Source of the DNA: an uncultured Vicinamibacteraceae bacterium | GTDB taxonomy: Bacteria; Acidobacteriota; Vicinamibacteria; Vicinamibacterales; UBA8438 | NCBI GenBank assembly: GCA_964636705.1 | Contig: CAZWUJ010000003.1 | Coordinates: forward strand, 128,873-192,872 | Direction of reading: 5' to 3' | Length of the DNA: 64,000 nt | Part shown: positions 46,599 through 64,000 of the stretch, in pieces | How the letters are laid out: every line of letters starts with the position of its first letter | How positions within the stretch are numbered: position 1 is the stretch's first letter | Made by a program: the position numbers and the translations under genes | The notes under the pieces: model-generated | Told to the model about the DNA's origin: nothing | Databases searched by the model: none | The model's input: the letters and a program-made list of their open reading frames with translations, nothing else

Positions 46599-47692
46599 AT
46601 GAGTGGAGTGCCAGTGCGCCTCGGGTGCGCCGTTCTCTGTGCCGCGGTGGCAGGCGCCGTAGCGGAACACGTCGGCGTGGCAGCCCAATCGATGACCACA
46701 CGCGGCCTCACGGCGATTGACGGCCTCGCCGTAGGCCACCACACCCTGGCCACCCGGCCCACCGGATGCACGGTCGTTCTGGCCGAGGCGGGCGCAACCG
46801 CCGCCGTGGACGTTCGAGGCGCCTCCCCGGGGACACGCGAGACCGCGCTGCTCGACCCCGCCAACCGGGTGCAGCAGGTACATGCCATCGTCCTTTCCGG
46901 CGGCAGCGCGTTCGGCCTCGCCGCCGCCGACGGGGTCATGCGCTACCTCGACGAGCGGGGCGTCGGTTTCCCGACCCGCGGCGGCCCCGTACCCATCGTG
47001 CCCGCCGCCATTCTCTTCGACCTGACGGTAGGCGACGGCGCCATCCGTCCGGGGGCGGAGTGCGGCTACCGCGCCGCGAAGACGGCTACCAGCGGCGCTA
47101 TCGCGGAGGGAACGGTCGGAGCCGGGGCGGGGGCTACCGTCGGCAAGCTGGCAGGTCCCGGACGGGCAATGAAGGGCGGAGTCGGCACCTCGCTGATCGA
47201 GTTGCCGGACGGCGTCCGCGTCGCCGCGCTGGTGGCGGTCAACGCCGTGGGAGATGTCTACGACCCGGAGACCGGTGCGCTGATAGCTGGAGTCCGAACG
47301 GAAGACGGTCGTGGCCTCGAAGGCGCCGGCGCCCTTCTTCGCCAGCCGCCGGCCGCAGCCCCCGGCGGTGAGAACACGACGATCGGCGTCGTGGCCACGA
47401 ACGTTTCGCTGACGCAGGCGGAACTGGGAATCGTTGCCCGAATGGCCCACGATGGCCTTGCGCGGGTTGTCCGGCCGGCCCACACGCCGGTCGACGGGGA
47501 TACGATCTTCGCTCTCTCCACCGGGGCCGTCGAGGCCACCGAGTGGACAAGCGACATCGGGCGACTGCGGATCGGCGCGCTGGCGGCCGATGCGACGGCC
47601 GAGGCAATCGTCCGCGCGGTGCGCGAGGCGACAGGAGTGCCGGGCTACCCCGCGGCACGTGACTTGATCGACGACGCGAAGGAGGACGGACG

Positions 47693-47696
<4 letters not shown>
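46599..47696 (+). CDS. P1/S58 (DmpA-type) aminopeptidase, secreted
   Basis: The in-frame ATG at 46599 lies inside track ORF 45867..47696. It has a signal peptide, GHHTL...TGCTVVL and the GS/T self-processing region (LSGGSAFGL). Confidence 0.8.
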
Positions 47697-49378
<1,682 letters not shown>

Positions 49379-50447: not shown

Positions 50448-51452
50448 ATGTCGTACGACCCGCTGGCGCACCAGCTTCTTTTCGTCGGCGGCAAGGGCGG
50501 GGTCGGCAAGACAACCACGGCGGCCGCCATCGCGCTGGCCGCAGCGGAGCGGGGTCGGCGCTGCCTCGTGGTGTCCACCGATCCGGCGCACTCGCTCGGC
50601 GATGTCTTCGAACGGGCGATCGGCGATCGCGAGACTGCGCTCGCGCCCAACCTGACCGGCCTCGAGGTCGATCCGGAGGCCGCCGCCACGGCGCACATCC
50701 AGACAGTGTCGACACAGATGAAGCGGCTGGTCCATGCGCGCCTCTACGACGAGATAGACCGTCAGATGGCGCTCGCCCGGGAAGCGCCGGGCGCCGTCGA
50801 GGCCGCCCTCCTCGAGCGTGTGGCGGCGCTGATGAGCGAGGCGGGGTCGCGTTTCGATATGGTGGTGTTCGACACGGCGCCGAGCGGCCACACCGTGCGG
50901 TTGCTGACGCTGCCGGAGGTGATGGCGGCCTGGATGGATGGCCTGCTTCGACAGCGCGAGCGTTCATCTCGGCTGGGAGCGATGCTGGGAAACCTCGGGG
51001 GTGGCCGGGTGCAGGGGGATGACCTGTCGTTGATCGATCAGGCCGCGGACCATGCGCCGAACAGTCCGGAGGCGCGCGTCACGGCCCTGCTGCACGCGCG
51101 CCGGCGCACGTTCCTGCGGGCGCGCGAGCGGCTGCTCGACACCGCGCGGACCGCGTTCCTGCTGGTCGTCAACCCGGACCGTCTCTCGATACTGGAGAGC
51201 CGCCGGATCGCCGCTACGCTGCAACGGTTCGACCTGCCGGTCACCGCGCTGGTCATCAACCGGGTTCTCCCCGAAGCGGCCGACGCATCCGGGTCGTTCT
51301 TCAAGGATCGGAGAAACCAGGAACAGGTCCACCTGCGCGAGATCGCCACCGCGTTCGCCTCACTCCCGCAAGTCCAGGTCCCGCTGGGGCCGCGTGACGT
51401 GCACGGTATCGACGCGCTGCGCGACGTGGGCGCGCACCTGTGCGCCACGTGA
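50448..51452 (+). CDS. ArsA/Get3(TRC40)-family P-loop ATPase, single domain
   Basis: The deviant Walker A GGKGGVGKTT, STDPAHSL and DTAPSGHT are present. The protein has only two Cys (RRCLVV and HLCAT). Confidence 0.85.
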   Translation: MSYDPLAHQLLFVGGKGGVGKTTTAAAIALAAAERGRRCLVVSTDPAHSLGDVFERAIGDRETALAPNLTGLEVDPEAAATAHIQTVSTQMKRLVHARLYDEIDRQMALAREAPGAVEAALLERVAALMSEAGSRFDMVVFDTAPSGHTVRLLTLPEVMAAWMDGLLRQRERSSRLGAMLGNLGGGRVQGDDLSLIDQAADHAPNSPEARVTALLHARRRTFLRARERLLDTARTAFLLVVNPDRLSILESRRIAATLQRFDLPVTALVINRVLPEAADASGSFFKDRRNQEQVHLREIATAFASLPQVQVPLGPRDVHGIDALRDVGAHLCAT

Positions 51453-51462
51453 CGGTCGCGCC

Positions 51463-53157
<1,695 letters not shown>

Positions 53158-55927: not shown

Positions 55928-56935
55928 CTACCGCCGTTCGAGGATCAGGACGTGGCGGTCCTCTCCCTCGCGCTCGCTGTCGCCCACGACGACCAGCACC
56001 AGACCGTCGCGAGCGGCAATGTCGCGGGCGGGACGGGGGGTGGCGAAGGCGCCGGCCGTCACCGGATTGGCGGGATCCGACAAGTCGACGACCTGCACAC
56101 CCTGCCGGGTGTCGGCGACGTAGACCAGTTCCCCGTCCAGCGACACGCTCACCGCATTGCCCGGCGTATCGAATGAAGACAGCTTGGCTGGCGCCGACGG
56201 GTCGGAGACATCGTAGACCTGCACGTCCCCGCCGCCGGCGCCCACGATCAACGTCGGGCGTCCGCCCGTCCCCGCCGATACCTCGATATCACGCGGCGCG
56301 GCCGGCGCGTGCACCACGCCGACCGGTTCCGGCATGCCGGGCCGCGAGAGATCGAAGACGTACAGCCCGGAGGGGGAATCGGTCGCATAGGCGATTGTCC
56401 CTGCCGTCACCACGTCGCGCGCGTAGCCGTCCAGGAAGAACGACCCGATCGCCGCGGGCGCGGTCTCGTCCGAGAGGTCGACCAGGACGAAACCCTCCAT
56501 ATGGTCGATGACACCCACCTTGCCGGAGGCGACGGCGCCTATCTTCGCCTGCCCGAGCGTCTGGTGATGGCCCAGCAGCCTCGGGTTGTCGGGATCGCCG
56601 ATATCGACGATGCCAAGTCCGAAGAAGTTGGCGCCGACATACGCCCGGTCGCCGGCCAATCGGAAGCCCCAGATCTCCTGCGGAAAGGCGTGCGACCCGC
56701 GCGCCACCGGACTGGCCGGGTTCGACAGGTCGTGCATGGTGAAGTTGTGCCCTCCCGCGATGTATCCGATGCCGTCGCGAACCCGCACCAGGTTGGCCGG
56801 TCCCGGAATCTCCCCGACCTGCTCCAGGGTTACGCCTTGCGCAGCGGGCTCCGGCGCCGGCCACCCGGCCACGAGCAGCATCGCCGCGCCGAGCGCCCAC
56901 CCGTTCCTCGAGGCGGCCGCACCCCAAGCCGTCAT
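55928..56935 (-). CDS. secreted LVIVD-repeat beta-propeller protein
   Basis: The ATG at 56935 overlaps the upstream stop as ATGA. The repeats are GLGIVDIGDPDNP, GFVLVDLSDETAP, GLYVFDLSRPGMP, DVQVYDVSDPSAP and GVQVVDLSDPANP. Confidence 0.8.
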   Translation of the reverse strand: MTAWGAAASRNGWALGAAMLLVAGWPAPEPAAQGVTLEQVGEIPGPANLVRVRDGIGYIAGGHNFTMHDLSNPASPVARGSHAFPQEIWGFRLAGDRAYVGANFFGLGIVDIGDPDNPRLLGHHQTLGQAKIGAVASGKVGVIDHMEGFVLVDLSDETAPAAIGSFFLDGYARDVVTAGTIAYATDSPSGLYVFDLSRPGMPEPVGVVHAPAAPRDIEVSAGTGGRPTLIVGAGGGDVQVYDVSDPSAPAKLSSFDTPGNAVSVSLDGELVYVADTRQGVQVVDLSDPANPVTAGAFATPRPARDIAARDGLVLVVVGDSEREGEDRHVLILERR

Positions 56936-58350
56936 GGCTCGGTTCCGACCGCTTCCGCGCCGCCATTCGCAATCCGGTACAGCTTCGACTGGGTCCGGAT
57001 GAAGAGGCTGCCGCGGGCGATGGCGGGCGTGGCGAGGGTCATCTCGTTCAGCGCGTTCTTGTGCAGGATGTTGAACTGCCGCCCCGCCTCGACCACGTAG
57101 GTTTCCCCGTCCTCGCTCAGCAGGAAGAGCTTTCCGTTGTAGGCCCACGGCGAGGCGGTGAAACCGTTGCCGATCTCGAGCCGCTGCCGGCCGTAGACCT
57201 CCTCTCCCGTTCGCGCATCGTGCGCTACCAGGAAGCCGCGATCGAGCAGCGTGTAGTAGATGTCGCCGTAGACGATGGCGGTGGTGTTGTACGTCCCGAG
57301 CAGCGGGTACGACCAGGCGATGTCCTCCGACGCCGTGAGCGGCCCGGGAAACCCGGAAGTGATCCCGTTCCGCATCTGCTCCGGGGTGAAAATCGAAATG
57401 TCGCCCGCCGCGCCGGGCCTGACGGCATATACCGGACGTAGCCCGCCGCCGGGATAGCCGGAGCTGATGTACACCAGGCCGTGCGCGGTGAACGGCGTCG
57501 GGATGGTAAGGCCCGACATGCCGTGCAGCTCCCACAACAGTTCGCCCTCGAGGGTGTACGAGCGAACCCCCTGCGTACCCGCCGTCACCAGTTCGGTCCG
57601 CAGGTCGTGCTCCCAGACGAAGGGCGTTGACCAGTTCTGGCCCCGCTCGTCCCGATCGATGCGCCACACCTCCTCGCCACTGTCCTTCTCGAACGCGGCG
57701 ACGAACGAACGGGTCGTGTTGTCGTTGACGATGTACAGGCGATCGTCGTGCAGGATGGGAGAAGCGCCGGTGCCCATCTCCAGCGTCGTGTTGTACGCCT
57801 CCAATTCGCGGGTCCAGATCAGCTCCCCGCTCATGTTGAAGGCTCCCAACTGGCCGATGGCGCCGAAGTACACGTACACGCGGCGGCCGTCGGTCACCGG
57901 CGTCTCCGACGCGAAACTGTTCTTCAGGTGCCGCTTGTTCGGAGGCGTGGCGGCGTGCAACTCCCGCTGCCACCGGACCGCGCCGGTATGGAAGTCGAAT
58001 GCGTAGAGCATCCACCGGTGCTGGTTCGCCGATGCTGCCGAACCGTTTTCCATTCCGGGGTCGTAGAGCCCCTTGATGGGGGCCGGCTCGTCACCCGCGC
58101 TGATGGCGGTGGTCACGAAAACGAGGTCGCCCGCCACGACCGGCGAACTCCACGCCAGCCCCGGGATGTCGATCTTCCAGACCACGTTCTCCATCTCGCT
58201 CCAGTGTTCCGGCAGCACCGGATCGTCCGGCACGACGCCGGCCGCCGGCCCCCGGAACTGACGCCAGTCCTCCTGTGCATGAGCGGCCACCGGAAACAGC
58301 AGCAAACCGGCCAGAAGCGGAATAGCCAGGGTGGCGGCGGTGCGGCGCAT
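56932..58350 (-). CDS. secreted PQQ-like (BamB-type) beta-propeller repeat protein
   Basis: I place the start at MRRTAATLAIPLLAG (ATG 58350) inside track ORF 56932..58956. It has a signal peptide and repeated W/G propeller blades (WSSPVVAGDLVFV, ASPILHDDRLYIV). Confidence 0.75.
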   Translation of the reverse strand: MRRTAATLAIPLLAGLLLFPVAAHAQEDWRQFRGPAAGVVPDDPVLPEHWSEMENVVWKIDIPGLAWSSPVVAGDLVFVTTAISAGDEPAPIKGLYDPGMENGSAASANQHRWMLYAFDFHTGAVRWQRELHAATPPNKRHLKNSFASETPVTDGRRVYVYFGAIGQLGAFNMSGELIWTRELEAYNTTLEMGTGASPILHDDRLYIVNDNTTRSFVAAFEKDSGEEVWRIDRDERGQNWSTPFVWEHDLRTELVTAGTQGVRSYTLEGELLWELHGMSGLTIPTPFTAHGLVYISSGYPGGGLRPVYAVRPGAAGDISIFTPEQMRNGITSGFPGPLTASEDIAWSYPLLGTYNTTAIVYGDIYYTLLDRGFLVAHDARTGEEVYGRQRLEIGNGFTASPWAYNGKLFLLSEDGETYVVEAGRQFNILHKNALNEMTLATPAIARGSLFIRTQSKLYRIANGGAEAVGTEP

Positions 58351-58476
58351 CGGTCTCCCTCCCTCGCACGCAACAGGTTGCGAAACGGCCTTCGCTCCTA
58401 GACTGCCCGCCCGCCAATCGTCTGTCAAGAATGGGCCATTCGGGGCATAATGGGCGGAAGTCAAGGAGTTGAGTCG

Positions 58477-59517
58477 ATGCACATGACCCCGACGCGCCGC
58501 TACGTTGTGATCGCGCTGATCGCCGCCGGCTGCGCCCTCACCATCGCGCCCGCTGCGACCGCGCAGATCGACCGCGTCGTCGATCCCAACTGGACCATGC
58601 CCCGTCTTCCGGACGGGTCGCCAGACCTTCAGGGGCTCTGGGGCAACAAGACGATCACGCCGATGGAGCGTCCTGACGGCGCCGGCGCGTTCCTGACCGA
58701 CGAGGAAATCGCCGAGCGCAACGAGCAGCGGGCGTTGACCCGGCAGCGACAGGACGCGGCACCGGCCCGGCGCTACGAAGCGGGCGGCAACGTGGGGGGC
58801 TACGGCAGCTACTGGCTCGACGCCGGCGATACCGTGCTCCGTACAGGCCAGACGTCGCTGATCGTCGATCCGCCGGAAGGCCGCGCGCCGATCCGGCAAT
58901 GGGCCCTGGACACGAAGGCATACAACCTGGCCCACAACGGCGACCACTATCTGCACATGAGCGTATGGGACCGCTGCCTCTCGCGCGGCGTCCCCGGATC
59001 AATGCTCCCGGCCGGCTACAACAACGCCTACCGGATCCTGCAGACCCCCGGCTACGTCACGATTCAGCACGAGATGATCCACGACGCCCGGGTCATTCCG
59101 GTCGTCGCCGGCCCGGCGGATCGGGTGTTCATCCACGAGAACATCCGCCAATGGATGGGTGACGCGCGCGCCTGGTGGGAGGACGATACCCTGGTCGTCG
59201 AGACCAGGAACTTTCACAACCGCGGCTGGATTGCGTCGAGCGCCGCGGGCGCGCGATTGAAGGGCATCCCGACCAGCCGGGCGTTGCATGTGGTCGAGCG
59301 CTACCGGCGCGTGGCCGAGGACACGATCCTCTGGACCGTCACGATCACCGACCCGAACGTCTACACGCGGCCCTGGACGATCCAGATGCCGCTGACGGCG
59401 GAGCCGGACTACGAGATCTACGAGTACGCCTGCCACGAGGGGAACTACGCGGTTCCCAACGCCTTGAGCGGCCAGCGCACGCTCGATGCGCACGCCGACG
59501 CGTCCACCGAACCATAG
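58477..59517 (+). CDS. secreted protein, unrecognised family, paralog 1 (most divergent)
   Basis: An AGGAG SD lies 8 nt before the ATG at 58477. It has a signal peptide or possible lipobox (IAAGC) and the family motifs PDLQGLW, SLIVDPPEGRAP, DRC, GYNNAYRILQTPGYV, IRQWMGDA..W..DTLVVETRNF and YEYACHEGNY. Confidence 0.8.
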   Translation: MHMTPTRRYVVIALIAAGCALTIAPAATAQIDRVVDPNWTMPRLPDGSPDLQGLWGNKTITPMERPDGAGAFLTDEEIAERNEQRALTRQRQDAAPARRYEAGGNVGGYGSYWLDAGDTVLRTGQTSLIVDPPEGRAPIRQWALDTKAYNLAHNGDHYLHMSVWDRCLSRGVPGSMLPAGYNNAYRILQTPGYVTIQHEMIHDARVIPVVAGPADRVFIHENIRQWMGDARAWWEDDTLVVETRNFHNRGWIASSAAGARLKGIPTSRALHVVERYRRVAEDTILWTVTITDPNVYTRPWTIQMPLTAEPDYEIYEYACHEGNYAVPNALSGQRTLDAHADASTEP

Positions 59518-59533
59518 CCACAGGAGGAATCAC

Positions 59534-60406
59534 ATGTCGCGCATCCGCCCGAACAGCTTCGTGGCCTCCGCCCTCGGCGCCGTAGTCGTCGCGCTTGCGG
59601 CCGTCGTCGCACCCGCCGGGGCGCTCGACGGCGCCATCTTCAACGTGGTCGAGCACCGCGATATCGACTACATCGCGGGCGAGGACTACGCCGACGACAA
59701 GGACAAGCTCGATCTCTTCATGCCGGAAGGTCTGACCAACGCGCCTGTCGTCGTCTACTTCCACGGCGGAGCGCTGCAGAACGGCACGAAGGCGATCGGT
59801 GAAGGACTCGGCCGGCAGCTCGCGGCGCGCGGCATCGGCCTGGTCACTGCGAACTATCGGCTCTCCCCGGCAGTGATGCATCCCGCGCACATGGAGGACG
59901 CAACCGCCGCGTTCGCATGGACGAAGCGGAACATCGCGAGCTATGGGGGCGACCCTGACCGGGTGTTCGTCTCGGGCCATTCGGCCGGCGCCTACCTCGC
60001 GGCGCTGATGGCGCTCGACCCCCGGTACCTCGACGCGCACCGCCTGCGGCTTTCCGACATCCGCGGCGCCATCCCGATCAGCCCCTTCCTCTTCGTTGAG
60101 GATCCTGACGTCGCGCCGAGCCGTCCGAAGACCGTGTGGGGAACCGACGAAGCGGTCTGGCTCGACGCGTCGGTCACTCCCTACATCGGGGAAAACAAGC
60201 CGCCCATGCTGTTCATCTATGCCGACGGCGACGACGACTGGCGGCGCGAGCAGAATCAACGGCTCGCGGCGGAATTGAGCGACGCCGGAAACGAAGCGGC
60301 GGTGATCGAGATCGCGGATCGGACCCATGGCAGCGTGAACTCGAATATGGGCGAGGATCTCGACAACGGCATGATGAAGGTTGTTTCGTTCGTCGAAGCG
60401 AACTGA
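59534..60406 (+). CDS. secreted alpha/beta-hydrolase (esterase/lipase type)
   Basis: I place the start at MSRIRPNS. The oxyanion HGGA (VVYFHGGAL), the nucleophile elbow GHSAGA and a late His (DRTHGS) are present. Confidence 0.8.
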   Translation: MSRIRPNSFVASALGAVVVALAAVVAPAGALDGAIFNVVEHRDIDYIAGEDYADDKDKLDLFMPEGLTNAPVVVYFHGGALQNGTKAIGEGLGRQLAARGIGLVTANYRLSPAVMHPAHMEDATAAFAWTKRNIASYGGDPDRVFVSGHSAGAYLAALMALDPRYLDAHRLRLSDIRGAIPISPFLFVEDPDVAPSRPKTVWGTDEAVWLDASVTPYIGENKPPMLFIYADGDDDWRREQNQRLAAELSDAGNEAAVIEIADRTHGSVNSNMGEDLDNGMMKVVSFVEAN

Positions 60407-60441
60407 CTGGACCAGGCTACGGGATTTTCGGAGGAGGTGAC

Positions 60442-61452
60442 ATGATGAGACGCATCCTGACCATCGCGACGGCCCTGATGGCCATCACCGCGCTCGCCGC
60501 CGGGACCGCGTTGGCGCAGAACGGGGACGGCTCGTGGACGGCGCCGAAGACTCCGTTCGGGCACCCCGACCTGCAAGGCGTCTGGGCGAACAACAATGCG
60601 ACGCCGCTGCAGCGGCCCGAGGCGCTCGGGGAACGCGAGTTCCTGACCGAAGAGGAACTGGCAGCGCTGCAGTCGCGCGCCAGCGAGCTGTTCGCACTTG
60701 ACGCCGGCGACGCTGCGTTCGGCGACAGCGTGTTCAACGCGGCGCTCAACGACGTGCAGGAATTCACGTCACGCGACCGCGCCACCGGGAACTACAACCA
60801 GTTCTGGCTCGTGGAGCGTGACTGGGACAACCGCACCTCGCTCATCATCGACCCGCCCAACGGCCGGCTCCCGGAGACGACCCAGGCGGCCAAGATGCGG
60901 GCCGCCGACCGCAGCATGCGACGGGCGCGGCACGCCGAGTGGACCGATGATCGGAGCCTCGGCGAGCGCTGCGTCAGCTTTGGGACACCGAGGCTCGGAG
61001 CCGGCTACAACAGCTATTACCAGCTCTTTCAGACGCCCGACCACGTCGTCATCCTGATGGAGATGGCCCACGACGCACGGATCATTTCCCTCGACGGCCG
61101 GCCGCACGTGGACGATGGCATCCGGCAGTGGCTGGGCGATTCCAGAGGCTACTGGGACGGCGATACGCTGGTCGTCGAGACGCGCAACTACTCTCCGCTC
61201 GCCAACTTCCAGGGCGCCGCCGAGCACCTGGAGATCACCGAGCGCTTCACGCGCGTCAGCGAGGACGTGCTGCAGTACGAGATCACGGCGAACGATCCGA
61301 CGACCTGGACGCGTCCCTGGACGGCCATGATCCCGTTGCGCAGCAGCCCGGATGCGCTGTACGAGTACGCCTGCCACGAAGGCAACATCGGTATGGAGGG
61401 CATCCTGGCGGGCGCGCGGGCCATGGAAGCCGAGGAAGCGGCGACGCGCTAG
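60442..61452 (+). CDS. secreted protein, unrecognised family, paralog 2
   Basis: A GGAGGAGG SD precedes the start. It has a signal peptide and the motifs PDLQGVW, YNQFW, SLIIDPPNGRLP, ERC, GYNSYYQLFQTPDHV, IRQWLGDSRGYWDGDTLVVETRNY, ERFTRV and YEYACHEGNIGMEGILAGARA. Confidence 0.85.
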   Translation: MMRRILTIATALMAITALAAGTALAQNGDGSWTAPKTPFGHPDLQGVWANNNATPLQRPEALGEREFLTEEELAALQSRASELFALDAGDAAFGDSVFNAALNDVQEFTSRDRATGNYNQFWLVERDWDNRTSLIIDPPNGRLPETTQAAKMRAADRSMRRARHAEWTDDRSLGERCVSFGTPRLGAGYNSYYQLFQTPDHVVILMEMAHDARIISLDGRPHVDDGIRQWLGDSRGYWDGDTLVVETRNYSPLANFQGAAEHLEITERFTRVSEDVLQYEITANDPTTWTRPWTAMIPLRSSPDALYEYACHEGNIGMEGILAGARAMEAEEAATR

Positions 61453-61537
61453 GGGTCTGCGCCGTGGAACGGTGCAGACCCCTAGATAGGCGCGGCTGGG
61501 CGGCCATCGGAGCCGCAGGCGACGATGGTCGGGCTAG
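61449..61537 (-). repeat. palindromic intergenic repeat element, copy C (inverted orientation)
   Basis: Sequence: CTAGGGGTCTGCGCCG-TGGAA-CGGTGCAGACCCCTAG (a 16-bp stem with one G-U pair), then ATAGGCGCGGCTGGGCGGCCATCGGAGCCGCAGGCGACGATGGTCGGGCTAG. The first CTAG contains the TAG stop of paralog 2. Confidence 0.85.
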
Positions 61538-61570
61538 AAGGCGACTCGATTCGGCCCAGGAGGTTGAGCG

Positions 61571-62575
61571 ATGCATAAGGGATCGTTTCGTATTGTGTCC
61601 GGCCTTGCCGCCGCGCTGCTGATCGCGGCCACCCCTGCCGTTGCGCAGCAGGCCGGCGGATGGTCGCCGCCGCGCACCGCCGACGGCCATCCGGATATCC
61701 AGGGGATCTGGGGGAACAATAGTGTCACCCCCCTGGAGCGGCCCGAGTCGCTTGCCGACCGCGAAACGCTGACCGACGAGGAGCTGGCGCGCGTCGAGAC
61801 GAGAGCGAACGAACTGTTCGCGCAGGACGCGGGCGACGCGGTCTTCGGCGATCAGTTCTTCAACGTCGCGGTGAGCGATGTCGAGAACTTCACGTCGACC
61901 GACGGCGGCACCGGCAACTACAACCAGTTCTGGCTGGTGGAGCGGGAATTCGACAACCGGACTTCACTCATCGTCGACCCGCCGAGCGGCCGGCTGCCCG
62001 AGTCTACCTCTGCGGCAAGGCTGGCATTCGAGACGACGATCGCGAACTTTGGCCGGCCCGCCGCCTGGACGGTGGACCGGGGCCTGAGCGAGCGCTGCAT
62101 CACGTTCGGACTCCCCAACCTGCTGGCGGGCTACAACAGCTACTATCAGATCTTCCAGACCGCCGATCATGTCGTGATCGAACAGGAACTGATTCACACC
62201 ACCCGGATCATTCCCATCGACAACCGCGACCACGTTCACGACAGCATCCGGCAGTGGCACGGGAACTCGGTCGGCTACTGGGAGGGCGACACGCTGGTCG
62301 TCGAGACAAGGAACTTCTCGCCGCAGAGCAACTTCCGTGGCGCGCGGGAACATCTGGAGCTGACCGAACGATTCACCCGGGTCGGACCGGACGAGTTGCG
62401 CTACGAGTTCACGGTCAACGACCCGACCGTGTGGGCGGCGCCCTGGACTGCCGTGATGCTGTGGAAGCGGACTGACGAGCCGATCTTCGAGTACGCCTGT
62501 CACGAAGGGAACATCGGCATGGAAGGCATCCTCGCGGGCGCCCGCGCCGAGGAAGCGGAGGCGGGCGCGCGCTAG
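61571..62575 (+). CDS. secreted protein, unrecognised family, paralog 3
   Basis: It has the same motif set as paralog 2 and can be aligned with it by eye along the full length. Confidence 0.85.
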   Translation: MHKGSFRIVSGLAAALLIAATPAVAQQAGGWSPPRTADGHPDIQGIWGNNSVTPLERPESLADRETLTDEELARVETRANELFAQDAGDAVFGDQFFNVAVSDVENFTSTDGGTGNYNQFWLVEREFDNRTSLIVDPPSGRLPESTSAARLAFETTIANFGRPAAWTVDRGLSERCITFGLPNLLAGYNSYYQIFQTADHVVIEQELIHTTRIIPIDNRDHVHDSIRQWHGNSVGYWEGDTLVVETRNFSPQSNFRGAREHLELTERFTRVGPDELRYEFTVNDPTVWAAPWTAVMLWKRTDEPIFEYACHEGNIGMEGILAGARAEEAEAGAR

Positions 62576-62627
62576 ACGTTGACGGCCGCGTCCGGCGCCT
62601 GGAGTCCGTCGGAAGAGGGATCGCCAA

Positions 62628-63620
62628 GTGCACAGGAAGACTTCGCCAATCAATCTGCTGGCGCTCCTGGCGGCGGGGGCGGCGCTGATTCCCATGGCGG
62701 CCACGCTCAATGCCCAGTCGGAGGACTATGCGGCGCCTCGCACCGCCTGGGGCGTCCCCGATCTCCAAGGCATCTGGACGAATGCGACGCTGACGCCGGT
62801 CGAGCGTCCGGAATCGATGAGCGGCCAAGTGCTTACCGCCGAGGAAGCAGCCGCGTTCGAAGCGCGTTCCGCCGAGGCGCGCGCCGCGTCGGACACGTTC
62901 ATCCCGGGCAACGTCGGCGCCTACAACCAGTTCTGGATGGACGGCGGCAAGGTGGTGACGGGCGACCGCCGGACGTCGTTGATCGCCGATCCTCCCGACG
63001 GGCGGATCCCGTGGACGCCGGAGGGACGGGAGCGGTTCGAGAACGACTCGGCGCGGTACGGCGTGGGGCCGTTCGATTCGTGGATCGACGCCGACACCGG
63101 TGAACGCTGCCTGACCGACGGCCTTCCGTTCGTTCCCTTGCAGGGTTACAACATGAACTACCACATCCTGCAGGGTCCCGGGTGGGTGGCGATGCTGAAC
63201 GAGATGTTCCACGAATACCGCCTGGTTCCGACCGATGGACGGCCCCATGTCCCGGCTCATGTCGGCCAGATCCTGGGTGATGCGCGGGGACGGTGGGAAG
63301 GCGACACCCTGGTGGTCGAGACGACGAGCTTCGCCGACAAGCGCCACTTTCTCTGGCGCGCCACCTGGCGCGCGGCGCGTCCCTCACTCCATCTGGTCGA
63401 ACGATTCACGCGCGTCAACGAGACGACGCTCGACTACGAGTTCACGATGACCGACCCGGAGATGTTCACGCGGCCGTGGACGGCCCTCGTCCCGATGACG
63501 ACCGACCACGCCTCGCGCGGCGTCACGTCCGGGCCGATATTCGAATACGCCTGTCACGAGGGGAACTACGGCCTGCTCAACATCTTGCGGGGAGCCCGCG
63601 CGGAGGAAGCGGAACCCTAG
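62628..63620 (+). CDS. secreted protein, unrecognised family, paralog 4
   Basis: A GTG start follows a GAGGGA SD. The motifs are PDLQGIW, YNQFW, SLIADPPDGRIP, ERC, GYNMNYHILQGPGWV, LGDARGRWEGDTLVVETTSF, ERFTRV and FEYACHEGNYG. Confidence 0.8.
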   Translation: MHRKTSPINLLALLAAGAALIPMAATLNAQSEDYAAPRTAWGVPDLQGIWTNATLTPVERPESMSGQVLTAEEAAAFEARSAEARAASDTFIPGNVGAYNQFWMDGGKVVTGDRRTSLIADPPDGRIPWTPEGRERFENDSARYGVGPFDSWIDADTGERCLTDGLPFVPLQGYNMNYHILQGPGWVAMLNEMFHEYRLVPTDGRPHVPAHVGQILGDARGRWEGDTLVVETTSFADKRHFLWRATWRAARPSLHLVERFTRVNETTLDYEFTMTDPEMFTRPWTALVPMTTDHASRGVTSGPIFEYACHEGNYGLLNILRGARAEEAEP

Positions 63621-63707
63621 CGCGACCATCGTCGCCTACGGCTCCGATGGCCGCCCAACCAGGCCTATCTGGCAGGCTGCACCGTTCCACGGCGCAGCCT
63701 GCTAGCC
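63617..63707 (+). repeat. palindromic intergenic repeat element, copy D (full unit)
   Basis: Sequence: CTAGCGCGACCATCGTCGCCTACGGCTCCGATGGCCGCCCAACCAGGCCTATCTG-GCAGGCTGCACCG-TTCCA-CGGCGCAGCCTGC-TAGCC. The first CTAG contains the TAG stop of paralog 4. Confidence 0.85.
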
Positions 63708-63754
63708 GCATGTTAGTATCTGGCGGCCCTTGGCGGGGCCGAGGAGGCATGTTG

Positions 63755-64000
63755 ATGACAAGTCGATTCGCTCTGATCACCTGGGCGGCGTTCGCCGCAC
63801 TTGCGCTCGCGCCGTTGACGGCCGGCGCGCAGCAAACCGAAGTGATGCGGACGCCGGATGGCCAGCCGGATATCTCGGGCATCTTCACCTTCCGGACGCT
63901 CACGCCGCTGCAGCGGCCCACCGCGCTGGAGGGACAGGACACGCTCGATCCCGAGTCGGCCGCGCAGTTCGAGGCGGCGGAGCGGATTCGGTTGAACCGC
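63755..64000 (+). CDS. secreted protein, unrecognised family, paralog 5 (N-terminal 82 aa; runs off the right edge)
   Basis: A GAGGAGG SD lies 7 nt before the ATG at 63755. The sequence is MTSRFALITWAAFAALALAPLTAGAQ...PDGQPDISGIFTF.TLTPLQRP, which has the same N-terminal motif order as paralogs 1-4. Confidence 0.7.
   Translation, partial: MTSRFALITWAAFAALALAPLTAGAQQTEVMRTPDGQPDISGIFTFRTLTPLQRPTALEGQDTLDPESAAQFEAAERIRLNR

Follow-up and report, generated by a model that had tools for sequence, protein, structure and literature searches.

An old array of exported two-cysteine proteins from a large, undescribed family with a predicted calycin-like barrel in an uncultured Vicinamibacteraceae bacterium

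What do bacteria do with a set of exported proteins that they keep in several copies, side by side, and that belong to no described family? This question is raised by a stretch of 64,000 nucleotides (nt) from an uncultured Vicinamibacteraceae bacterium of the Acidobacteriota (contig CAZWUJ010000003.1, positions 128,873 to 192,872; hereafter, the window), at the end of which lies an array of related genes. A previous reading of the letters alone (the sequence-only reading) had described there five same-strand paralogs of an unrecognized secreted protein family, four of them arranged head to tail.

The five genes were confirmed as open reading frames (ORFs) on the + strand (Table 1). A search of the window with a hidden Markov model (HMM) of the family retrieved exactly these five members and no others. 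The four complete copies score 376-608 bits, which places their similarity far above chance, and pairwise identity among the five paralogs is 41-62%. Copies 2-5 do stand head to tail, with intergenic gaps of 118, 52, and 134 nt, and an esterase gene separates copy 1 from copy 2. A GGAGG-like Shine-Dalgarno sequence is found 6-13 nt ahead of the start codon of every copy. A scan of the array was uninformative as to promoters (one promoter-like site versus 0.5 expected); it detected no terminator-like site on the + strand, which fits co-transcription of the array without proving it.

The Sec signal peptide attributed to each copy was recovered heuristically: every N-terminus has one or two K/R residues, a hydrophobic core and an A-x-A cleavage site followed by Q at residues 25-30 (the n/h/c layout of Sec-type signals). 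The ordered set of motifs then proposed is essentially right, albeit slightly strict: (i) PD[LI][QS]G[ILV][WF] and TPx[EQ]RP match exactly in all five copies; (ii) SLIxDPPxGRxP, [ED]RC, DPxx[WFY]xxPWT, and [FY]EYACHEGN match exactly in the four complete copies; (iii) copy 1 departs from YNQFW (YGSYW) and from ERFTRV (ERYRRV); (iv) the GYN motif has no exact match in copies 2 and 3; and (v) the IRQW motif has none in copies 1 and 4. Counting also upheld the presence of exactly two Cys in the mature region of each complete copy; these cysteines, in ERC and ACHEGN, are spaced 134-152 residues apart. A haem c site, which the sequence-only reading had already denied for ACHEGN, was rejected because neither Cys is in a CxxCH (or CxxxCH, CxxCK) context. 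Copy 1 has an extra Cys at residue 19, within its signal peptide (58477-58566, residues 1-30), in the context I-A-A-G-C, which is also present in its counterpart in a related genome (L001:6969-7058). Because this context resembles a lipobox, copy 1 might, judging from its sequence, be a lipoprotein rather than a soluble protein, unlike the other paralogs.

That the family is unrecognized was borne out by all the curated libraries searched. Pfam gave no match at E ≤ 1 for the five window copies and nothing family-wide among 128 diverse members scanned singly; NCBIfam returned only noise for the five copies (10-14 bits against cut-offs of 382-988); and sequence searches of the PDB, with single sequences and with a profile, gave no match. 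Members from sphingomonads and from a shorter sister subfamily (the short form, described below) have no curated-library match either. The homologs are all named "hypothetical protein" at their source. Full-text literature searches on the ACHEGN motif and the linked DUF families yielded nothing relevant, and a search on Vicinamibacter and pyrroloquinoline quinone (PQQ) yielded nothing on the family.

The family is, in any case, very large. An exhaustive HMMER search over 1.84 billion cluster representatives (50% identity) gave 25,210 clusters at E ≤ 1e-3, 13,192 at E ≤ 1e-10, and 2,564 at E ≤ 1e-30, counts that take in fragments and the short-form subfamily; a word-indexed homolog search gave at least 8,000 candidates. 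At least 589 loci were confirmed in species-representative genomes, mostly of Vicinamibacterales, Bryobacterales, and other Acidobacteriota, with several from Gammaproteobacteria (Pseudomonadales, Pseudohongiella, Steroidobacter, Rariloculaceae). Divergent members are encoded on plasmids of cultured sphingomonads. Overall, the family belongs chiefly to Acidobacteriota, Gamma- and Alphaproteobacteria. Across a survey of 80 homologous loci of about 20 kb each, 43 carry two or more family copies (up to eight) and 37 carry a single one. Some family-bearing contigs have implausible taxon labels, namely L004 and L021 (Bifidobacteriaceae/Bifidobacterium) and L027 (a metagenome-assembled genome of Klebsiella pneumoniae); these are probably mis-binned or mislabelled contigs. 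Domain fusions among members are heterogeneous (SQHop_cyclase_C, PCMT, cupin, Lipocalin_5) and were set aside as functional clues, as they are probably gene-call mergers or one-offs.

The age of the array can be read from L001, a syntenic contig of 4.18 Mb from a related genome. The window and L001 share the order CstA, outer-membrane protein (OMP) barrel, M4 peptidase, LVIVD, PQQ_2, family copies, esterase, and family copies. Each window copy has a positional one-to-one ortholog in L001 at 84-90% identity, as compared with 41-62% between paralogs, and the ratio of nonsynonymous to synonymous substitution rates (dN/dS) of window copies against their L001 orthologs is 0.10-0.17, comparable to that of the esterase (0.12), whose position between copies 1 and 2 is likewise kept in L001. 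Since ortholog identity exceeds paralog identity and dN/dS is 0.10-0.17, the array is an ancient one, with purifying selection acting on every copy; by the same orthology and dN/dS values, recent duplication and pseudogenes were rejected. Nor does the conservation of the motifs reflect recent duplication, a possibility that the sequence-only reading had named: 271 long-form relatives, at 37-50% identity, still have them.

L001 carries seven family copies in total. One extra copy (L001:5907-6887) lies between the PQQ_2 gene and the copy 1 ortholog, where the window has a 126-nt intergenic gap (58350-58477); because this copy is missing from the window, the array is still gaining or losing whole genes. 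After the copy 5 ortholog, the next genes of L001 encode a 150-aa membrane protein, PQQ_2, SGL, a family member on the - strand, PQQ_2, and an ABC exporter. From this synteny, the contig of the window probably holds one more copy beyond position 64000 and no long further array. The 150-aa gene was considered as a divergent DUF6152 (a partner of the family elsewhere, see below) and rejected, since it encodes a multi-pass membrane protein with no match to the DUF6152 HMM.

Residues are numbered here as in copy 3 (61571..62575), which is also the protein modelled. The alignment of 128 diverse long forms has the invariant columns R175, C176, G231, E266, E307, C310, and E312, with H311 and N314 at 90% or above. 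When 271 long and 120 short sequences are aligned, two subfamilies can be differentiated: (i) the long form, to which the window copies belong, as all four complete ones carry its signature (R175-C176, H209, E266, E307, C310-H311-E312-G313-N314, PDLQGxW, and TPxERP), whose residues are invariant or conserved to 90% or more across the 271 long sequences; and (ii) the short form, an unnamed subfamily of at least 8,000 clusters, with about 270-280 aa and 110-180 bits against the long-form HMM (for instance, L032:9641-10477 and P0271-P0390). The short form shares with the long form the N-terminal PD/N-L-x-G-x-W, both Cys, WEGDTLVV, ER[YF]T, DPxxFTxPW, E307, and E312, but lacks some 60-100 residues of the N-terminal region (profile positions ~57-150) and most of the C-terminal helix. 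Positions common to both forms are Q196, E206, R212, W229, G231, W237, E266, R267, D284, W292, E307, and E312. Specific to the long form are H311 (Val in all 120 short forms), H209 (Ser), R175 (Lys), Y188/N189, and G313/N314.

This comparison bears directly on the two cysteines, for which a disulfide, or else a metal or catalytic Cys-His site, had been suggested. Of 385 relatives, long and short together, 384 have both C176 and C310, and mature regions with exactly two Cys are found in 238 of the 271 long forms and 119 of the 120 short forms. Short forms keep both Cys with Val at 311 and, hence, Cys conservation is independent of His311. Together with export and the two-Cys count, this sequence pattern favours a Cys176-Cys310 disulfide over a Cys-His dyad: the disulfide option stands and the Cys-His option is weakened.

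The structural check that the sequence-only reading had called for (AlphaFold followed by Foldseek) gave no match to the whole protein in the PDB or in BFVD. A first AlphaFold2 (AF2) model, built with 29 close homologs, had a predicted local distance difference test (pLDDT) score of 67.6, was poor across the motifs and gave only insignificant Foldseek matches. With 128 sequences (37-51% identity) the model reached a pLDDT of 88.6 and a predicted template modelling (TM) score (pTM) of 0.85. It runs from the signal helix (residues 6-19, low pLDDT) through about 160 residues of mostly irregular chain to eight consecutive antiparallel strands (residues 191-301 as assigned by DSSP, pLDDT 94-98) and a C-terminal helix (311-333). 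Within the N-terminal chain, which is confidently placed (residues 30-80 have a pLDDT of about 96), three helices span 69-82, 95-101, and 147-160. The model thus shows what is predicted to be a single globular unit: a calycin-type barrel with a conserved N-terminal wrap and a C-terminal helix as closure.

Against the PDB, Foldseek matched the barrel only, over 115-122 columns, to SAHS, CRBP, CRABP, and FABP proteins (E 8e-5 to 1e-3; TM 0.20-0.24 on the query and about 0.5, at best 0.54, on the target; identity 12-18%), and the top matches are all FABP, CRBP, CRABP, SAHS, and streptavidin barrels. On the basis of these matches, the core may be described as a calycin-like barrel. The ~160-residue N-terminal wrap, the C-terminal helix and the whole architecture have no counterpart in the PDB or in BFVD (viral structures), a search of the latter giving nothing at all. 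Thus, the predicted structure has the 8-10-stranded antiparallel up-and-down barrel of the calycins, but neither global structural similarity to them (TM > 0.5 over most of the protein) nor profile homology was found. Like the intracellular lipid-binding proteins FABP, CRBP, and CRABP, and like SAHS (5xn9, 5h9a, 5z4g, 5l8o), the family would have a small antiparallel up-and-down barrel (residues ~191-301) and, like the tardigrade SAHS proteins, it is secreted. It differs from them in that only about one third of the protein is matched; some 160 N-terminal residues under strong conservation, a C-terminal helix and two conserved Cys come in addition. Besides, its conserved set is polar (His, Glu, Arg, Asn), in contrast with a lipid pocket of purely hydrophobic character.

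The Pfam lipocalin and FABP models gave no sequence-profile match. The bacterial families Lipocalin_5 (PF13924) and Lipocalin_4 (PF13648) are, like the family, exported barrel domains of similar size, and we take the family hairpin G-x-W-x-G-D-T-L to be reminiscent of them. Homology of the barrel to Lipocalin_5 was nevertheless rejected: one family member, P0213, has a Lipocalin_5 domain fused at its C-terminus, and hhalign of the family profile against that domain gave a probability of 0.4%. Being fused in P0213, the two are separate modules.

Two segments of the barrel draw attention to a possible functional site. By the direction of the strands assigned with DSSP, the beta2-beta3 loop (206-210, with E206 and H209; R212 nearby) and the segment after beta8 (302-314, with E307 and C310-N314) should lie at one end of the barrel, and a disulfide would bring R175 to that same end. 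Variation and indels are concentrated at residues ~81-126, 151-170, and 249-260. Copies 2 and 3 have in common a ~20-residue helical insertion (residues 91-110 of copy 3, window 61841-61900) that is missing in 65-84% of the 128 diverse members and sits in the most indel-prone region; it marks these two copies as a sub-lineage.

Beyond the window, the genes that accompany the family were analysed by clustering and annotating the non-family ORFs of the 80 loci. PQQ-dependent dehydrogenases (PF01011) are the largest neighbour cluster (24 of 80 loci, as a raw count). Of 33 such ORFs, 16 lie within 2 kb of a family member and five within 500 bp, in inconsistent orientation. Other recurrent neighbours are DUF1592-family proteins (13 loci), metallo-beta-lactamases (12), NHL propellers (11), a cytochrome-c-containing protein (11), and DUF1552 (10), followed by amidohydrolase, amidase, GSDH, FAH, and putative cyclase (5-6 loci each). 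The secreted hydrolases that had been noted next to the array are indeed there in the window (M4 peptidase, esterase); they are not a general trait of the 80 loci. Pairs formed by DUF1592/1588/1585/1587/1595 proteins (with a cytochrome c domain) and DUF1552 (HXXSHH) adjoin members at L076:2866-6674, L026:4305-8221, L042, L031, L034, and L044; a literature search on DUF1552 and DUF1592 together found no paper.

The only consistently operonic partners are the short form and DUF6152 (PF19649), the latter tightly linked, by HMM, in at least 20 of the 80 loci. In Bryobacterales, other Acidobacteriota and Gammaproteobacteria, a single-strand cassette runs from the short form through the long form to DUF6152, its genes 15-80 nt apart; independent gene calls agree, and the short form is usually directly upstream of the other two (a long form is directly downstream of 11 of 25 short forms). 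Variants of this arrangement exist in cultured bacteria: in Novosphingobium humi, a family member precedes DUF6152 with two DUF6644 genes alongside and, in Croceibacterium atlanticum, two DUF6152 genes precede a family member and a TonB-dependent receptor. In one protein, a signal peptide is followed by DUF6152 and the family domain within a single chain. DUF6152 is, like the family, exported, and is co-encoded with it in Acidobacteriota, Gamma- and Alphaproteobacteria, but it is small (some 110 residues in its mature form) and unrelated to the family. In 18 of 18 aligned DUF6152 sequences, HH[SA]F comes directly after the predicted signal cleavage ([AS]HH[SAG]...), and an NPH motif is conserved. 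As a result of this position, the mature N-terminus would be a His, which presumably recalls the metal sites of histidine-brace proteins.

Two tandem genes for DUF6644 membrane proteins adjoin the cassette in distant taxa (L083:10393-11379 and L086:3930-4905, both on the - strand); against Pfam, DUF6644 gave faint, sub-threshold DUF2214 and CopD matches (E 0.0015-0.19). In two places on the - strand (L083:2045-5015 and L085:1796-4766), the gene for a 721-aa quinohemoprotein, made of a PQQ propeller and a cytochrome c domain, has a DUF6152 gene behind it in the same orientation, in a unit convergent with a second short-long pair. The surroundings of these L083 and L085 cassettes contain IS110/DDE transposases, group II intron reverse transcriptases and DruA-like genes. 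The array under study has none of this cassette: HMM searches detected neither DUF6152 nor the short form in the window or in L001, where long forms only are present.

The explanation that best accommodates these observations, although we hold it tentatively and as somewhat more doubtful than assured, is that the family consists of exported, disulfide-stapled proteins with a calycin-like barrel that bind or transform a small molecule at a polar site in the barrel mouth, the paralogs being diversified in their loops and serving the periplasmic catabolic enzymes encoded around them. In this mechanism, (i) Cys176, in the loop ahead of the barrel, and Cys310, at the start of the C-terminal helix, would form a structural disulfide in the periplasm, tying that loop to the helix; (ii) the protein would act in the periplasm as a small-molecule-binding or catalytic barrel; (iii) its functional site would be the polar cluster at one barrel mouth, made up of R175, Y188, N189, H209, H311, and N314 plus the superfamily-wide E206, E307, and E312; (iv) copies would be tuned in specificity through the three variable segments, where they mainly differ, so that the array supplies several related activities or binding specificities; and (v) these activities would serve nearby exported catabolic enzymes such as propellers, PQQ dehydrogenases, esterases, and lactamase-fold hydrolases. 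Elsewhere, the long form would work with its shorter, His-less paralog and DUF6152 as one cassette, the window being a long-form-only expansion. The substrate diversification that the sequence-only reading had proposed agrees with ancient, selected paralogs whose variation falls in a few indel-prone segments; it is, even so, something that we infer.

Several points weigh against this explanation. No member of the family has a known ligand, metal or activity. The predicted structural match to calycins is weak, covering one third of the protein at 12-18% identity, and hhalign detects no homology to the bacterial Lipocalin_5 domain. That the two cysteines are close, and that the polar residues cluster, is read from the topology of the model, and several of the conserved Glu and Arg could form structural salt bridges instead of a site. 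As regards the neighbours, apart from DUF6152 and the short form, both missing in the window, none is consistently operonic and, therefore, the link between the family and catabolic enzymes is statistical and loose; moreover, the PQQ-dehydrogenase count is a raw one.

Among the alternatives, the one that survives best, unlikely as we judge it, is that the long form is a metalloprotein in which a metal ion is bound by H209 and H311 plus at least one of E206, E307, and E312 (perhaps a Cys too), and which acts alongside DUF6152, and in some loci DUF6644, in handling metals or in redox reactions. The two histidines are exactly what sets the long form apart from the short one and they sit among invariant carboxylates; the linked DUF6152 proteins share their N-terminal His pair and NPH motif, DUF6644 recurs beside the cassette with its faint CopD-like matches, and quinohemoprotein PQQ dehydrogenases and c-type cytochromes are frequent neighbours. 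However, no match to a known metal-binding family or motif was obtained, the CopD-like matches are far under curated cut-offs, the proximity of H209 and H311 is presumed, and the window and L001 keep five to seven long forms under selection with no DUF6152, DUF6644 or short form.

Less probable still is a role as protein-binding accessory (chaperone, scaffold or inhibitor) of exported beta-propeller enzymes (PQQ dehydrogenases, PQQ_2, NHL, SGL, LVIVD), with one paralog per enzyme and no small-molecule site. Propellers do flank the array in the window and L001 (LVIVD, three PQQ_2, SGL), the seven copies of L001 are of the same order as the nearby propellers, PQQ dehydrogenases, NHL, and GSDH proteins recur as neighbours, and the long and short forms may themselves pair. 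Yet so few PQQ-dehydrogenase ORFs are close to a member, and in so inconsistent an orientation, that this role fits poorly; the 37 single-copy loci, and the many loci with no nearby propeller, tell against it as well, and polar sets as nearly invariant as this one (with His, Glu, and Asn) typify chemical sites more than diversified protein interfaces.

A further reading, which we regard as improbable, casts the long form as the subunit that does the chemistry in an undescribed periplasmic system of several components. The short His-less paralog and the His-His DUF6152 protein would also belong to it, as would, in some cases, CopD-like DUF6644 membrane proteins and quinohemoprotein PQQ dehydrogenases; arrays like the present one would be substrate-specialized expansions of the catalytic subunit. 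Such a system, suggested by gene linkage, would amount to a new enzyme or carrier, metal-dependent or redox in nature, and would be widespread among the Acidobacteriota and Proteobacteria of soils and sediments. Finally, a catalytic thiol-imidazole dyad of Cys310 and His311, which would make the protein a cysteine hydrolase or transferase and leave Cys176 free or in a regulatory role, is very improbable: the two residues stay adjacent, next to an invariant Glu, in 261 of the 266 long forms aligned, but short forms keep both Cys and Glu312 with Val in place of the His, neighbouring residues on the first turn of a helix would point apart in a poor geometry, exactly two Cys in an exported protein are a classic disulfide signature, and no Cys-protease or transferase family was matched.

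Table 1. Features of the array, its counterparts in L001 and related loci (positions are those of the window unless a locus name is given)
Feature	Location	Strand	Evidence or details
Exported beta-propeller, PQQ_2/BamB-like repeats, divergent upstream neighbour	56932..58350	-	PF13360, E 1.3e-17
Copy 1, long form, 346 aa	58477..59517	+	HMM 376 bits; mature Cys167 and Cys319
Esterase Abhydrolase_3/BD-FAE, alpha/beta-hydrolase	59531..60406	+	PF07859, E 2e-24
Copy 2, 336 aa	60442..61452	+	HMM 608 bits; Cys177 and Cys311
Copy 3, 334 aa	61571..62575	+	Family HMM; AF2 pLDDT 88.6, pTM 0.85
Copy 3, predicted Sec signal peptide, residues 1-26, cleavage AVA/QQ	61571..61648	+	Heuristic
Copy 3, Cys176 codon, ERC motif, loop ahead of barrel	62096..62098	+	Invariant in 128-sequence alignment
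Copy 3, predicted eight-strand antiparallel barrel core, residues 191-301	62141..62473	+	DSSP, pLDDT 94-98
Copy 3, A309-C-H-E-G-N314, start of C-terminal helix	62495..62512	+	Alignment, AF2 model
Copy 4, 330 aa, GTG start	62628..63620	+	HMM 385 bits; Cys161 and Cys309
Copy 5, first 82 codons only, ends at window edge	63755..64000	+	HMM 40.6 bits, E 6e-12
Copy 1 ortholog	L001:6969-8012		89% identity, dN/dS 0.14
Copy 2 ortholog	L001:8945-9952		90% identity, dN/dS 0.14
Copy 3 ortholog (P0002)	L001:10001-11005		86-87% identity
Copy 4 ortholog	L001:11071-12069		89% identity, dN/dS 0.10
Copy 5 ortholog, full length, 333 aa	L001:12119-13120		84% identity
Cassette examples	L032:9641-11929; L083:8001-10363; L082:8001-10266; L079:5304-7666; L081:1331-3645; L035:6017-11320		Short form ~275 aa, long form ~330 aa, DUF6152 ~145 aa
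DUF6152 sources	L061, L032, L079, L049, L076, L035 and others; L086:7522-7905; L087:5871-6674		

The remainder of the window is ordinary chromosome, with SecA, IMPDH, GcvP, SSF and CstA transporters, and a MacB/HlyD/OEP efflux system; tRNA and Rfam scans of the window gave no matches. The beta-propeller gene upstream of the array, which has a 472-aa ortholog in L001, is regarded here as a context gene, partnership with the array not being proven. Two CstA paralogs (carbon starvation, peptide/pyruvate transporter) are encoded about 2 kb apart at 47663-49375 and 51430-53157 (+ strand), directly upstream of the OMP-barrel gene and the secreted M4 (thermolysin-like) peptidase, which suggests a peptide-scavenging neighbourhood.

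What is new here is an undescribed, very large family, with its elaborations and its conserved set of residues; the barrel core, in turn, is a variant of an existing superfold. With tens of thousands of sequence clusters, it ranks among the larger protein families without a curated model, a name, a structure or a paper. The analysis defines the family, divides it into two subfamilies, and identifies its invariant residues and the partner in its cassette, which would justify a new family model. The cultured carriers Novosphingobium humi and Croceibacterium atlanticum make the question of its function experimentally tractable. Its members come mostly from Acidobacteriota (Vicinamibacterales, Bryobacterales), bacteria that abound in soils and are poorly understood. 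Since its members are exported, multi-copy, strongly conserved, tied to DUF6152 and found near periplasmic PQQ dehydrogenases, the family probably marks an unrecognized piece of periplasmic chemistry in the organisms that carry it.

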